A model generated the notes under the pieces. The model did not search any database. It worked only from the letters and a program-made list of their open reading frames with translations, and was not told the origin of the DNA. Shown here piece after piece: positions 25,432 to 36,262 of a stretch of DNA of 64,000 nt. Position numbers and translations under genes: made by a program. Position 1 is the stretch's first letter; each line of letters starts with the position of its first letter. The stretch spans positions 196,305 through 260,304 of the forward strand of contig JBBRLY010000013.1 of the NCBI GenBank assembly GCA_038231155.1, in the 5' to 3' direction. The stretch is from Candidatus Saccharimonadales bacterium. GTDB lineage: Bacteria; Patescibacteriota; Saccharimonadia; Saccharimonadales; JANWIN01.

Positions 25432-28400
25432 ATGGCCCGATTACCACAGCCAGGGGGTGACGACGGAGATTGGGGGATTATACTCAATGATTTCTTAGAT
25501 GTTGCTCATAATCCCGATGGCAGTCTTAAAAATGTTGTTAGTTTAAACACCAGCCAATCTATTAGCGGCGCGAAGACGTTTTCAGTCTCGCCGACTGTAC
25601 CAACACCTGTACTAAGTGGAGATGCTACAACTAAAGCTTACGTGGACAGCACTGCCGGAGCTGGGACGACTGGGGCAACAGGCCCTGCTGGAGCAGCTGG
25701 TGCTACTGGTGCTGGTGTAACTGGTGCTACTGGCCCTATTGGTACAGTTGGAGCAACGGGATCACAAGGCACAACTGGCGCAACCGGATCAGGAGGTAGC
25801 CAAGGAGCAACCGGAGCTACTGGACCGACCGGAAGTACTGGAACGCAAGGTTCTACAGGAGCAACCGGAGCAGGCGTAACTGGAGCTACTGGACCTGCTG
25901 GAACTGTTGGAGCAACAGGTTCACAAGGCACAACTGGCGCAACCGGATCTACCGGCACGCAAGGTACCACTGGTGCGACGGGACCGACTGGGACAACAGG
26001 TACGACAGGCGCCACCGGGACAACAGGTGTACAAGGAGCTACTGGATCAACAGGAAATCAGGGCACTACCGGAGCGACGGGTCCGACTGGGACTACTGGA
26101 ACTACAGGAGCAACCGGTAGTCAAGGTAATGCCGGTGCTACCGGAGCAGTTGGGGCCAGTGGCGCTACTGGGCCTAGAGGTTTTGCTGGTGGTGATACTT
26201 TTACTTATACCTTCGATACAGGCACAACTGATGCAGACCCGGGTTCGGGCAAACTAAGATTTGATAACGCTACTGTTTCCTCGGTCACGCATATTTATGT
26301 AGACGTATTAGATAGTAATGGGACTGATGTTACAACTTGGCTCAACAATATGGGTGGTGGTGTTGTTAAGTTATTTAATAACTCAGACCCCACCAAGTTT
26401 GCTATTTTTACTGTTGGTTCAGTTACCAGCGTCGCTGGATATGATAAGTTAAATGTAACTTATACCACAAATGCTGGGACGCTTGGCACTACGGCCGCAG
26501 ATCTAGTATTAACTTTTGCTCCGCCTGGACCGACCGGTCCGCCAGGCAACGCAAGTACTCAGGGAGCTACCGGAGCTACAGGACCGATTGGTGCTGATGG
26601 AGCAACCGGTGCTGGAACCACAGGAGCCACCGGCTCAGCCGGGGCTTCAGGTTCGGCTGGTGCAACTGGTGCAACCGGAAGCAGTGGTCTCGGTTTTGGT
26701 AACGTAGTTACTAAAACAACTAACTACACAATTGTTTCAGGAGACAATGGCACAGAAATAACATTTAATGGATCTAATTTAACGGCTAAGCTACCAGCCA
26801 CAGCCCCAGCTCAGCCCTGGATGGTAACTGTTATTAATTTAAATGCCAGTAGCTTAACCTTAGATCCTAACGGCCTCACCTTAAATGGTTCAGTAAGTAC
26901 TAGCTCAATAGCTCAAAACCAAAGCGTTTTTGTTTGGTCAGACGGTACTAACTACAATTATGGTACCGGCCCCCAAGGTGCCACCGGACCTACTGGGACA
27001 ACCGGGGGACTAGGTAATACGGGGGCTACAGGTAGTGCTGGTAGTCAAGGAGCTACTGGTTCTGTAGGAGCTACAGGTTCTAGTGGTGGACAAGGGGCTA
27101 CAGGGTCAACTGGTACAACCGGAGTAACCGGTGCGACTGGACCTGCAGGTCAGTTTGGTTTAGCGAGAACTGGTGTTAAAACAGCTAACTATAGTGCTAG
27201 TGTAGGAGACTTAGTTCCTTGTGATACTAATACAACTGGTGCCTTTACGGTAACGCTACCTGATGCCCCAGCAGATAAATCTACTATTGGCATAAAGCTT
27301 ATTATTCAAGGTGCGACTAATACTGTTACTGTAGTCACTCATGCTGATGCTGGAGCTAGTGGTGGAGCAACTGGTTCTGATGTATTTAATAAAGCTGGCG
27401 GTGCAACCAGCTTAACACTTAGTCTACTTAATCAAGGAGTTATCTTAGAATACACGGCTGCATCAGCCATTTGGACAGTGCTAGCCGATGATTTGGCTTT
27501 ATCTCAACTGGATGCACGTTTTATTGCCAGTGGAGGAGCAGCCGGCGGTGACTTAACTGGCACTTATCCAAATCCGACGGTCAGTTCGACAGCTAACTTT
27601 AAGACTCAGGTTGAAACTGTACGTCTTGATCAAATGGCAGTTCCTACAGCTTCAGTTAGTCTTAATTCTCAGAAGATAACTAACCTAGCTAATGGTACTG
27701 CTGCCAGTGATGCTGCAGCCTTTGGGCAAATACCAACTGGGTTACCGCCTACAGGAACAGCCGGTGGTGACTTAACGGGTACTTATCCGAACCCAACTAT
27801 CAAGTCTGGTGTCAGTCTAACTACTCCAAATATTAATGTCGCTACTGCAACTTCTATAAACAAAGTTGCAATTACCGCTCCAGCTACTTCATCAACTTTG
27901 ACTATAGCTGATGGTAAAACACTTACAGTTAACAACTCATTAACATTTGCCGGAACCGATGGTACTACCATGACGTTCCCAAGTACATCGGCCACAATCG
28001 CCCGTACTGATGCTGCAAATACTTTCACCGGTGTCCAGACGATGACCTCGCCAGCTCTGACAACTCCAGCTATAAATGGTATTTCAACCGGAACAGGTGT
28101 AGCTACAGCCGCAACTGCTAGTACATTATTGCTACGAGATACCAATGCCAATGCCACGGCTAATAATTTTATTGAATCATATGCAACTACTACCACAGCT
28201 GCTGGTACTACCACTCTGACCGTAGGTAGTGCTATGCAACAGTACTTTACAGGCAGCGCAACCCAAACTGTTACTTTACCGGTTGCCAGTACCATGGTTC
28301 TTGGCCAAGGCTTTGCATTTACTAACAATAGTACTGGCGCAGTTACTATTAATTCATCTGGTGACAGCGCGGTTCAAGTTATGGCAGCATCATCATCTGC

Positions 28401-34756: not shown

Positions 34757-36262
34757 ATGATTAAACAAATAGTCTTTATCGGTGACTCATTAACGGTCGG
34801 ATTTCAGCTACTCGGTGTCTCGATCGGCCAGGGCGGGAAGGGCGGCTGGGTTGAGCTGGCAGCTGAACTTTTAAATGATGCCCCGACAGTGGGACCGCTT
34901 CTCGGCACCGGCATTCGACCGGTTTCCGGTGGTTGGGTCAGTCTTACTGAATGGAGTTTTGCGGGCAGTTGGACAGCCGTTACTAACAGTAATGCCTTCG
35001 ATAAAATGCCCTATAACTCAATTAAGTATGCCAATGGTGCTACTAACATTGCCACCTTTACGGTCTCCACCCATTGGCGCCCGGCCGTTGGCTTTTGTAT
35101 CTACTATATTGACTACGCCAGCGGTGGTAATTGGCAGTACCGGATTAATGGCGGCAGCTGGACGAACATGGGCCAGACCATTCTAAATGACGATAAATTG
35201 GCCAAATTTTATGTGGCGTCGGCCGTTTCGCCTGGCCAAACCATCGATATTCGGGGGTTCGACGGGACGGCAGATTGCGGCGTATTGCCAGCCGGCATCG
35301 AATTATTCTATAGCGATCCTAGGGTGGCCACTCAGGGCTTGATTGTCCATAATCTGGCCGTTGGGGGAACTTTCATGAGTCAATTATTTCCCAGTGCTCC
35401 GGCCGATCCGTTGGCTTTTTTTGATTCGGTCAAACTTGGCACGGGTTCGCCCATCACCAATTCCCCCAATAGTGGGACGTTTATTATGCACATCAATGAC
35501 GTGGTATTTAACAACGTCGGTCAATGGGCAACTAATCATACATCGTTTTATAATCGCGTCTCGCCGCTGGGTCCGGTCGGCTTTATTAGCCCCTGGGAAA
35601 ATGGCGCCGGGCCGTCCAGTTTTGTCACCAAGGTGACCAATTACACCGTTCTCACAAGTGACAACGTTTTTGGGTTTAACTTTAATGGCACTAGCCTAAC
35701 TGCCACCTTACCAGCAACCCCCCCTGCACCAGGACTTATTTCCTGGTATGTCATCATTATCAATCTTAATGCCAGCGCTCTGACCATTAATCCGAATAGC
35801 AATACGTTAACTGGGTCGAGCACAGTGGCTCAGAATCAGGTTGTCCAAATCACCTCCAATGGCACCAAATACACTGTTAGTACCAATGGAGCCTACAATC
35901 AAGCCAACTTTCGGGCGTCAACTAAGTCATCGGCTCAATCCCTGGGTGCTCAAATTTTTGATATTTATGACGCCTGGAACGCCAATGGCTGGGGGAATGT
36001 CGTCGGCACTCAGAGCGCGGCCCTGATAGCTCAGGGCTTTACCATCCCCGATGATAGTGGCACCCATCCCACCCAAGCCGCTCACTTAGATTTAGCAGTT
36101 CGTATATATTGGTTTTTGCGTAATCAAATCCTCGGAATTAGCAATGAACCTGCAGCTTATTCAGTCGGAGCAAAACAAGTTGCATCCAGTTATACTGGCA
36201 GTAAACCAGCGGTTGCTTATACTTCTAGTTTACCAATTTCGTTATTACCGCTAGATCATTGA
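34757..36262 (+). CDS. SGNH/GDSL-type hydrolase fused to a fibre-type module
   Basis: 501 aa. The N-terminal block IVFIGDSLTVGF gives the GDS catalytic Ser. An internal segment (nt 35621-35885), VTKVTNYTVLTSDN...TATLPATPPAP...IIINLNASALTINPNSNTLTGSSTVAQNQVVQITSNGTKY, matches fibre 1 at nt 26701-26965. A late DSGTHP may be block V (DxxH). Confidence 0.72.
   Translation: MIKQIVFIGDSLTVGFQLLGVSIGQGGKGGWVELAAELLNDAPTVGPLLGTGIRPVSGGWVSLTEWSFAGSWTAVTNSNAFDKMPYNSIKYANGATNIATFTVSTHWRPAVGFCIYYIDYASGGNWQYRINGGSWTNMGQTILNDDKLAKFYVASAVSPGQTIDIRGFDGTADCGVLPAGIELFYSDPRVATQGLIVHNLAVGGTFMSQLFPSAPADPLAFFDSVKLGTGSPITNSPNSGTFIMHINDVVFNNVGQWATNHTSFYNRVSPLGPVGFISPWENGAGPSSFVTKVTNYTVLTSDNVFGFNFNGTSLTATLPATPPAPGLISWYVIIINLNASALTINPNSNTLTGSSTVAQNQVVQITSNGTKYTVSTNGAYNQANFRASTKSSAQSLGAQIFDIYDAWNANGWGNVVGTQSAALIAQGFTIPDDSGTHPTQAAHLDLAVRIYWFLRNQILGISNEPAAYSVGAKQVASSYTGSKPAVAYTSSLPISLLPLDH

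Follow-up and report, generated by a model that had tools for sequence, protein, structure and literature searches.

The small and large subunits of hydrogenase are a known hitchhiker pair in twin-arginine translocation (Tat). Hitchhiking of signal-less subunits through Tat is also established for PaoABC (PMC4273604); FAD glucose dehydrogenase, with its small 'hitchhiker' subunit, provides a further precedent (PMC6719666). Phage-like fibres encoded on chromosomes and collagen-like surface proteins are each known as well. We analyzed a stretch of 64,000 nucleotides (the window) from a Candidatus Saccharimonadales bacterium (assembly GCA_038231155.1, contig JBBRLY010000013.1, positions 196,305 to 260,304 of the forward strand; genome of 929 kb in 23 contigs, 40% G+C, 96.8% complete). 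One strand of the window carries, in this order, tatA, tatC, a gene for a small Tat-signal protein (TSP), two genes for very long collagen-like fibre proteins (fibre 1 and fibre 2), an SGNH-type esterase gene and a glycosyltransferase gene. The two fibres begin with a common 36-residue sequence, referred to here as the tag. What stands out most at this locus is that the tag is coupled to a dedicated Tat system and to TSP, a coupling that would give proteins without a signal of their own a route to the surface. On balance, we favor the view that the fibres are cell-owned surface fibres of the phage receptor-binding type, exported and anchored by this Tat system. An earlier note on the window, made from the letters of the sequence, had proposed cellular fibres of phage type with exchangeable tips. 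That part of its interpretation held up, and the coupling of the tag to Tat and TSP had been overlooked.

Co-occurrence and adjacency of the tag, TatC and TSP

The distribution of the three components was determined in 301 Saccharimonadales genomes of at least 85% completeness, using a tag profile built on residues 1–36. The tag was found in 110 of the 301 genomes. It is accompanied by TatC in 106 of them and occurs without TatC in four; eight genomes have TatC only and 183 have neither. The corresponding counts for the tag and TSP are 107 (both), 3 (tag only), 9 (TSP only) and 182 (neither), and TSP is present in 108 of the 114 TatC-bearing genomes. All three components are found together in 104 genomes (103 when one unpublished genome is omitted), none of them in 178, and a partial set in 19. 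TSP occurs in three of the four genomes with the tag but no TatC and in four of the eight with TatC but no tag; assembly gaps probably explain several of these partial sets.

The pattern is not that of one clade. In families of mixed composition, the same genomes carry all three components: 5 of 16 genomes in family f4, 6 of 8 in f8, 7 of 10 in f10, 2 of 16 in f29 and 2 of 4 in f32. Within each of the genera g38, g42 and g44, one genome has none of the components and its congeners have all three. Such switches within families argue for several independent events.

The genes are also neighbors. Of the 108 genomes with both genes, about 90 have a TSP gene no more than 3 kb from tatC, by our own reading of the coordinates. 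In a 41-genome set with complete lists, 11 of 23 genomes have a tagged gene within 3 kb of tatC, and five more have one within 10 kb. Of 120 tag loci (8 kb each) drawn from species representatives, 20 contain tatC, with about 1% expected by chance; of the 22 TSP genes in the fetched loci, at least 12 directly precede a tagged gene on the same strand. In three closed genomes, tagged genes are also found hundreds of kb from tatC, so the co-occurrence does not reflect simple physical linkage. The tag, TatC and TSP have been gained and lost together across the Saccharimonadales, and their genes are adjacent. As in a Tat hitchhiker pair, one partner bears a signal and the other has none, and the genes of both are linked to one another as well as to tatC.

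The Tat-signal protein and the fibre N-termini

TSP opens with a short hydrophilic segment followed by the motif N-R-K-E-F-L; a hydrophobic stretch of about 17 residues then leads to a tail of 25 residues that ends in G-Y-G-S-S-S-Y-G-G-G-R-K-R. Residues A2, R17, F20, G33, G57 and Y61 are invariant in the family alignment. All 19 aligned TSPs have the motif (S/T/D/N)-R-(R/K)-x-F-(L/I/V) with a hydrophobic stretch, and a G-Y-G-x-x-x-Y-G-G tail is conserved. The motif Arg and Phe are invariant among the homologues from other genomes (n = 19), several of which read T/S-R-R-E-F-L, the textbook Tat consensus. TSP of the window itself conforms to the canonical motif of Tat substrates, and its hydrophobic stretch looks, by sequence, like an uncleaved signal anchor. 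The fibres do not conform to this motif: they start with M-A/S-R-L-P-x-P-G-G-D-D-G, the maximal 15-residue hydropathy within residues 1–60 is 0.4, and a sequence scan found neither a hydrophobic N-terminus nor a signal peptide or transmembrane stretch in either of them.

Eighteen of the 19 TSPs match the NCBIfam model NF038009 (TatB_1, 'twin-arginine translocation system-associated protein'), with a best E value of 3e-21. The match to TSP of the window covers positions 3–69 of the 70 in the model, but its 61 bits are below the 100-bit cut-off; since the best E value among the other TSPs is only 3e-21, these too appear to fall short of the cut-off, which implies that the TSPs are relatives of the modeled family and not members. 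The name implies a Tat subunit; neither the library nor the literature searched gives a function or cargo for the family or connects it with tagged fibres. The curators of the model had thus seen the Tat association of a related family of small proteins, and nothing beyond it is on record.

The family name bears on an alternative in which the tag is itself a non-canonical Tat signal read by TatC, and TSP is an accessory, TatB-like Tat subunit or a regulator. The candidate signal would be the invariant M-x-R-L-P together with the amphipathic W-G-x-x-L-N-x-F-L. Nearly all of the best 150 representatives with the tag, which has an invariant Arg3, carry it at or near their first residue; the TSP gene almost always neighbors tatC, in about one copy per tatC, as expected for a subunit of the machine, and the TatCs have long C-terminal extensions; the NCBIfam name TatB_1 of the related family points in the same direction. 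However, the tag contains only one Arg, lacks a hydrophobic stretch, is acidic in net charge, is predicted to fold confidently as a trimer (pLDDT, the per-residue model confidence, of 92–93) and functions in phage virions, which are not exported. TSP, in turn, fits the consensus of a Tat signal and not the layout of TatA/B, and a separate, true tatA is present. We consider a direct reading of the tag by TatC quite unlikely.

If the fibres are exported by hitchhiking, the tag should bind TSP. The predicted complex of three copies of the tag region (residues 1–80) with one TSP scored 0.49, and the best of three controls scored 0.00. In a calibration of this score, 58 of 80 solved complexes and 2 of 110 mismatched pairs passed the mark; passes at 0.60 or less comprised only 7 of the 80 solved complexes and both of the passing mismatched pairs, and the calibration applies only roughly to this job, which used its own alignments and 3+1 chains. 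The runs agree in at least 80% of the contacts, with pLDDT of 46–56 for the partner and 92–93 for the tag trimer. This prediction lends weak support to binding between the tag trimer and TSP.

The tag and the proteins that carry it

The consensus of the tag is M-A-R-L-P-x-P-G-x-D-D-G-x-W-G-x-I-L-N-D-F-L-x-V-x-H-N-x-D-G-T-L-K, and M1, R3, P5, D10, W14, G15, L18, N19 and G30 are invariant in the alignment. A 75-residue query from the fibre N-terminus matches 5226 representatives at E values of 0.001 or less, and in nearly all of the best 150 of these the tag begins at residue 1 or a few residues from it. It matches proteins of Streptomyces phages of the BRock group, which are 57–64% identical over residues 1–36. 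In viral contigs, the tagged gene directly follows the tape-measure gene in one case and the gene for Dit in another, and is located a few genes downstream in a third. In phages, the tag heads a tail spike or fibre, the place where a virion-docking domain is expected. In the Streptomyces phages GiJojo and BRock (112–115 kb), tagged collagen-like genes are found amid a large tRNA array, outside the main tail module; the tag match in GiJojo begins 15 codons into the annotated open reading frame (ORF).

What the tag is attached to was assessed by scanning 81 tagged proteins against Pfam. BppL_N was found in 67 of the 81 and DUF5907 in 50, followed by Collagen (13), pectate-lyase-like domains (9), beta-helix (5), GDSL lipase (4), CBM5/12 (4) and polysaccharide deacetylase (1). 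Judged by these domains, the tagged set resembles the repertoire of phage receptor-binding proteins and depolymerases, which fits an extracellular role; an episymbiont, too, would need such a set on its exterior.

Among the listed matches to a degenerate DNA pattern for the fibre N-terminus (species representatives), most come from Saccharibacteria/Saccharimonadales. Relatives of the organism have genomes of 0.6–1.6 Mb with up to 13 tagged genes each, and on these grounds we regard it as a saccharibacterium. Tagged genes were also seen in metagenome-assembled genomes (MAGs) labeled as Paceibacteria, Paceibacterota, Moraniibacteriota and 'Patescibacteria group' (loci L096, L110, L111 and L066); at L096 and L111, tatC is located within 2 kb, and the tag of the latter also has a TSP-like ORF next to it. 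The system may therefore extend beyond the Saccharimonadales. Outside the Patescibacteria, an isolate assembly of Mycolicibacterium agri contains two adjacent TSP-tag pairs on DNA of about 60% G+C, which places the pair beyond this phylum; one of the tagged genes looks truncated or frameshifted. Tagged genes without TSP were observed in Gordonia and in a MAG of Acidimicrobiia. Two MAGs labeled as Acidobacteriota (0.8 Mb and 0.6 Mb) carry both the tag and TSP. Their label is probably wrong, and at 0.6–0.8 Mb they were not taken as evidence that the system has spread to Acidobacteriota.

Architecture and origin of the fibres

Fibres 1 and 2 are 79% identical over residues 1–75 and 71–72% identical over a globular insert of about 120 residues (BLASTP E value 1e-70), and have no similarity past about residue 430. 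In fibre 1, the tag is followed by a fibre repeat (residues 37–75), by three collagen tracts (78–255, 378–421 and 513–578), with the insert at 256–372, and by a module in common with the SGNH protein at 426–508. A region at about 1138–1318 resembles decoration proteins and matches the capsid decoration protein 9nx3_A (E value 1.6e-10) and PHROG 2647. The layout of fibre 2 is the same to about residue 430 and continues with unrelated modules up to a C-terminal beta-sandwich tip (about 916–1080). Fibre 1 has 94 and fibre 2 has 65 uninterrupted G-X-Y triplets, with Thr at the Y position in 56–58%, and the Pfam Collagen model matches with E values of 8e-28 and 1e-16, respectively. Genome-wide, this N-terminus is present in two copies only, those of fibres 1 and 2. 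An internal duplication of 260 nucleotides in fibre 1 (27539–27798 and 28481–28740, 91% identical and 942 nucleotides apart) encodes in both copies a 12-residue motif that is found four times, at residues 705, 778, 1019 and 1092. The near-identical N-termini, G-X-T tracts, common insert, divergence after about residue 430 and missing signal peptides described in the earlier note all reappear here.

Several non-collagen parts of the fibres match phage proteins. For residues 35–72 the match is gp36, a tail fibre of Aeromonas phage 65; for the insert it is the tail fibre of Pelagibacter phage HTVC010P. A beta-sandwich (pLDDT 76) is the modeled fold of the fibre 2 tip, whose best structural matches are collagen-repeat proteins of BRock, minor tail proteins from phages of Streptomyces, Gordonia and Mycobacterium, and the central fibre of Mycobacteriophage Douge. 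Searches of solved-structure sequences with the C-terminal region of fibre 2 and with the SGNH protein found nothing. PHROG tail-fibre families match the fibres with E values down to 5e-42, partly driven by collagen; most of the PHROG tail-fibre matches and the NCBIfam Scl/Lcl matches are to the collagen triplets and were not used as evidence of membership. Taken with BppL_N and DUF5907 in the tagged family, the modules and tip matches give the fibres the modular build of trimeric phage receptor-binding proteins, and the tail-fibre-type architecture proposed earlier is borne out by the matches that do not involve collagen.

The genomic setting is not that of a phage tail module, as the neighbors are tatA, tatC, a sortase and the glycosyltransferase. 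The entire 929-kb genome gave no match to families of the terminase large subunit (PF03354), the HK97 capsid, the portal or the tape measure, and no phage gene was found among the scanned window ORFs (19315 to 40743). The single tyrosine recombinase of the genome is on another contig, and no integrase is present on the contig of the locus. In G007, which belongs to another genus of the same family, the order is tatC, a small protein, a fibre (1439 residues), a fibre (991 residues), SGNH, a glycosyltransferase (88% identical) and the same downstream genes; two ORFs of 127 codons between the G007 fibres proved to be off-frame artefacts within its second fibre gene. G003 and G005 have related arrangements, with tandem fibre-plus-SGNH cassettes in G005. 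Because G007 repeats the gene order and G003 and G005 resemble it, the locus is a stable feature of the chromosome. By sequence and synteny, the fibres can be described as chromosomal, conserved mosaics of phage tail-fibre modules.

Codon composition is uneven along the locus. The G+C content at third codon positions (GC3) of tatA, tatC, TSP and fibre 1 is similar to that of neighboring genes. Fibre 1 has a GC3 of 0.31 and a G+C content at second positions (GC2) of 0.62; its high overall G+C is thus an amino-acid effect, and we rejected it as a sign of foreign origin. GC3 rises to 0.46–0.69 in a segment that takes in fibre 2's distal half and the greater part of the SGNH gene, compared with 0.28–0.35 in neighboring genes. 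The tip domain of fibre 2 recurs on proteins with unrelated N-termini, which, together with this foreign codon composition, bears out the exchangeable tips suggested earlier. The joint foreign GC3 and the fibre-SGNH pairs that recur in G005 and G007 indicate that tip and esterase move as one cassette.

These observations also bear on the possibility that the locus is a remnant of a prophage, tailocin or mobile island, in which the tag, tatC and TSP travel together without functional dependence. The phage-type modules, the patchy distribution even within genera and the foreign codon composition of the distal half of fibre 2 and of the SGNH gene would fit such an origin. Against it stand the missing virion genes in the genome and the missing integrase on the contig, the same flanking genes in another genus, and the native-like GC3 of tatA, tatC, TSP and fibre 1. 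Neither linked tail genes nor an integrase with element ends were found, and the up to 13 tagged genes of a genome are scattered hundreds of kb from tatC. In addition, none of 17 tag-bearing viral contigs contains tatC or TSP. We regard a mobile remnant as highly improbable. The earlier note had allowed for the tip of a prophage or tailocin whose remainder lies elsewhere, which did not withstand the search for terminase, capsid, portal and tape-measure genes across the genome; its preference for cellular fibres, and its failure to see phage structural genes in the window, are confirmed by that wider search and by the syntenic loci.

The SGNH esterase and the glycosyltransferase

The SGNH protein has the catalytic blocks of its family (G9-D10-S11-L12, G52, N247 and D433/H437), with an Asp-His spacing that is one residue longer than in most of 30 homologues and is the same in homologue P0161. 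A CBM35-like beta-sandwich is inserted at about residues 60–200, and the model (pLDDT 78) shows an SGNH fold with this sandwich. Residues 290–372 form a fibre-type module of about 86 residues, 55% identical to fibre 1 residues 426–508 (E value 3e-19), in keeping with the GDSL hydrolase with a fibre-type module recognized previously. Several homologues carry PF13472, and most of the homologues, which are roughly 400 residues long, have no fibre-type module. The protein has no signal peptide and no tag.

Its best solved match is Ape1, the peptidoglycan O-acetylesterase of Neisseria and Campylobacter (4k3u/8gkd, Foldseek E values 8e-12 to 1e-9). The two have in common an SGNH fold interrupted by a CBM35-like sandwich, with template-modeling scores of 0.61–0.68 (0.68 normalized to the target). 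In contrast to Ape1, to which it is about 10% identical, the SGNH protein has no signal peptide, an extra fibre-type module and the longer Asp-His spacing. The role as a receptor-modifying esterase suggested in the earlier note is possible, but the enzyme has no export signal of its own.

Orthologues of the GT4-type glycosyltransferase (E values below 1e-60) are present in 22 of the 301 genomes, 21 of which have at least one component of the system, and often lie in the tat locus. The GT4 gene adjoins tagged genes at four of the related loci and is about 2.3 kb downstream of one at a fifth. Four genomes without the system were checked, and these contain no GT4 orthologue, only paralogues of 24–30% identity. 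GT4 is an accessory gene of the system. In BclA, the threonines of a collagen-like G-X-T tract are glycosylated; by analogy, GT4 may glycosylate the G-X-T threonines of the fibres in the cytoplasm before export.

A proposed route to the cell surface

Beyond the genomic coupling, we infer each mechanistic step. The fibres would fold and trimerize in the cytoplasm, where, in genomes with a neighboring GT4 enzyme, their G-X-T threonines might be glycosylated as in BclA. The tag trimer would dock on TSP, most likely on its Gly/Tyr-rich tail, and TatAC would read the R-(R/K)-x-F-L signal of TSP and move the complex across the membrane by the 'hitchhiker' route. The uncleaved hydrophobic stretch of TSP would then remain in the membrane and hold the fibre on the cell surface. 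There, the variable, horizontally exchanged tips, which would be lectin-like beta-sandwiches here and pectate-lyase beta-helices, GDSL esterases or CBM5/12 elsewhere, would bind or cut the envelope glycans of an actinobacterial host. The Ape1-like SGNH esterase might deacetylate the host wall after export alongside the fibre, or modify the glycan of the fibre itself. A saccharibacterium with a tip resembling those of actinophages fits host binding by the fibres but does not prove it.

Several points weigh against this reading. We know of no Tat cargo that approaches a fibre trimer of about 3 x 1790 residues, which far exceeds any known one, and cargo size is the main difficulty of the hitchhiker model. 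The tag works in phages without export and hence is no secretion signal by itself, the complex prediction is weak and the fold of TSP uncertain, and the SGNH and glycosyltransferase proteins have neither tag nor signal. Eight TatC-bearing genomes have no detected tag and four tag-bearing genomes have no TatC. The counts are, moreover, uncorrected for phylogeny, so that a Fisher p value near 1e-65 overstates the association and is not to be quoted as a probability. Finally, a loose genome-wide filter for RR beside a hydrophobic stretch returned mostly membrane proteins and a few ambiguous candidates, so that further Tat substrates are possible.

A different division of labor is also conceivable, in which TSP is only a membrane peg inserted by Tat and the fibres leave the cell otherwise (by another secretion system, in vesicles or by lysis of sister cells) and then dock on its exposed Gly/Tyr tail, as a phage fibre does on a baseplate. 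The fibre trimers are of an awkward size for Tat, the tag is a docking domain in phages, where it is found beside tape-measure and Dit genes, and TSP has an uncleaved-looking signal anchor with a conserved short tail. Co-occurrence and adjacency fit this arrangement as well as they fit hitchhiking, and the complex prediction (0.49 against 0.00 for the control, and weak) concerns binding and not the route. Yet the arrangement requires a second export route for signal-less proteins in genomes of 0.6–1.3 Mb and leaves unexplained why Tat is almost never kept without tagged proteins. We consider it rather unlikely; it and the direct reading of the tag by TatC rank next after export of the fibres by hitchhiking on TSP, and both preserve the coupling and change the route.

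With hitchhiking on TSP as the preferred route, a broader proposition can be put forward tentatively, with less confidence than the reading of this locus: that in the Saccharimonadales, and probably in other Patescibacteria, TatAC is kept for one class of client, and that TSP captures the phage-derived tag and displays changeable fibres and glycan-cutting enzymes, rebuilding the joint between phage baseplate and fibre and setting the actinobacterial host range.

Features of the locus

The coordinates of the locus are given in Table 1. The tatC product has its TatC domain at residues 9–215, followed by a C-terminal extension of about 100 residues. All sequence features listed in the earlier note are present where it had placed them, including the glycosyltransferase and the RCC1 protein downstream (recovered here as PF00534 and RCC1 repeats) and the two short ORFs between the fibres, the first of them one base beyond the fibre 1 stop; tatA, tatC and TSP upstream of fibre 1 had been missed.

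Table 1 Features of the tat-fibre locus (positions within the window).
Feature	Position	Strand	Evidence
tatA, 74-aa ORF, TTG start	23772..23996	+	PF02416 TatA_B_E, E value 2e-13, above the curated cut-off, at 23841-23981
tatC, 324 aa	24037..25011	+	PF00902, E value 3e-49
TSP, 67-aa Tat-signal protein	25097..25300	+	NCBIfam NF038009, 61 bits
Fibre 1, 1790 aa	25432..30804	+	ORF; Pfam Collagen, phage-fibre modules
N-terminal tag of fibre 1, residues 1-36	25432..25539	+	Family alignment
89-aa ORF, non-conserved, putative gene	30806..31075	+	Starts 1 base past the fibre 1 stop
50-aa ORF, non-conserved, putative gene	31163..31315	+	Chance-level matches only
Fibre 2, 1080 aa	31380..34622	+	Tag, collagen tracts and insert as in fibre 1
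Segment with foreign-like codon composition	33180..35957	+	GC3 in 100-codon bins
SGNH/GDSL esterase, 501 aa	34757..36262	+	Catalytic blocks; predicted fold
GT4-type glycosyltransferase	36360..37526	+	PF00534, E value 9e-18
RCC1-repeat protein, 759 aa, 13-14 repeats	37558-39837	-	Family scan

The 89-aa and 50-aa ORFs had been included in the fibre system as small coiled-coil proteins. They have no relative in about 160 related loci, no family match and no Atlas hit, and the 89-aa ORF is absent from the syntenic locus of G007; for want of conservation, both were dropped as parts of the system. The RCC1 protein is absent from the otherwise syntenic G007 locus and was likewise not counted.

Upstream, a 238-aa protein adjoins tatA-tatC (23050-23766, minus strand). 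It has a signal-like N-terminus, a Ser/Thr-rich stretch and a C-terminal transmembrane stretch with a KRRRKK stop-transfer sequence, matches no family above cut-off, and has homologues of 45% and 39% identity beside tatC in G007 and G003, respectively; it might be one more component of the system. A sortase gene (PF04203, E value 6e-23), situated about 3 kb upstream of tatC, overlaps the end of a 484-aa ORF without a family (20298-22390, minus strand), and the two may form a separate pair for the anchoring of surface proteins. The DNA stretch was present in two DNA runs of one study (sediment and soil metagenomes), from which the sequence may itself derive, and no RNA run was among the listed runs that carry it.

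Significance

A review credits type IV pili and adhesins for the attachment of episymbionts to their hosts (PMC12173739). How these ultra-small cells recognize and hold their hosts is largely open, and the locus suggests a second apparatus for it, made of cell-owned fibres of phage type. If hitchhiking of the fibres on TSP is correct, it would account for the persistence of a patchy Tat system in genomes below 1 Mb, and loss of tatC or TSP would strip all tagged proteins from the surface. It would also widen the known range of Tat cargo, make phage docking domains an example of reuse as a cellular sorting tag, and imply that tips are exchanged between episymbionts and the phages that infect the same hosts. 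Two handles follow from the locus: the 36-residue tag, which marks the set of cargo proteins in any genome, and the 67-aa candidate carrier.

Comparison with known systems

The collagen-like tail proteins of actinobacteriophages (BRock gp186 and gp211 and the central fibre of Douge) have the same order of tag, G-X-Y tract and beta-sandwich tip. Unlike these, the fibres described here are encoded on a chromosome without virion genes and beside tatA-tatC-TSP, are much longer, and are syntenic across genera.

BclA of the Bacillus exosporium and the Scl/Lcl proteins likewise have G-X-T tracts, a globular C-terminal domain and a neighboring glycosyltransferase, and are likely trimeric filaments. 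In contrast to them, the fibres have no Sec signal, LPXTG or exosporium-targeting motif, and their N-terminal tag is a different domain. The Scl/Lcl models NF038329, NF038330 and NF046116 reach 60–113 bits against cut-offs of 325–500, on triplets only. In a comparison with C1q/TNF-like tips, a TNF-like lectin and several carbohydrate-binding modules appeared only among the weak matches of the beta-sandwich model.

The hitchhiker systems (hydrogenase, PaoABC and the gamma subunit of FAD glucose dehydrogenase) also combine a small signal-bearing protein with a large signal-less partner encoded by an adjacent gene. Their cargo consists of cofactor-bearing redox enzymes, whereas here the proposed cargo comprises many interchangeable fibres of phage type and glycan-active enzymes with one docking tag; and compared with the hitchhiker carriers, TSP is hardly more than a signal to which a tail of 25 residues is joined. 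The combination was not described in the literature searched (on saccharibacterial Tat and collagen-like proteins, DUF5907, and Tat hitchhiking of tail fibres). What is new here, set beside these systems, is a Tat system in Saccharibacteria that tracks a single docking tag of phage origin, with a minimal, signal-only candidate carrier and a changeable cargo.

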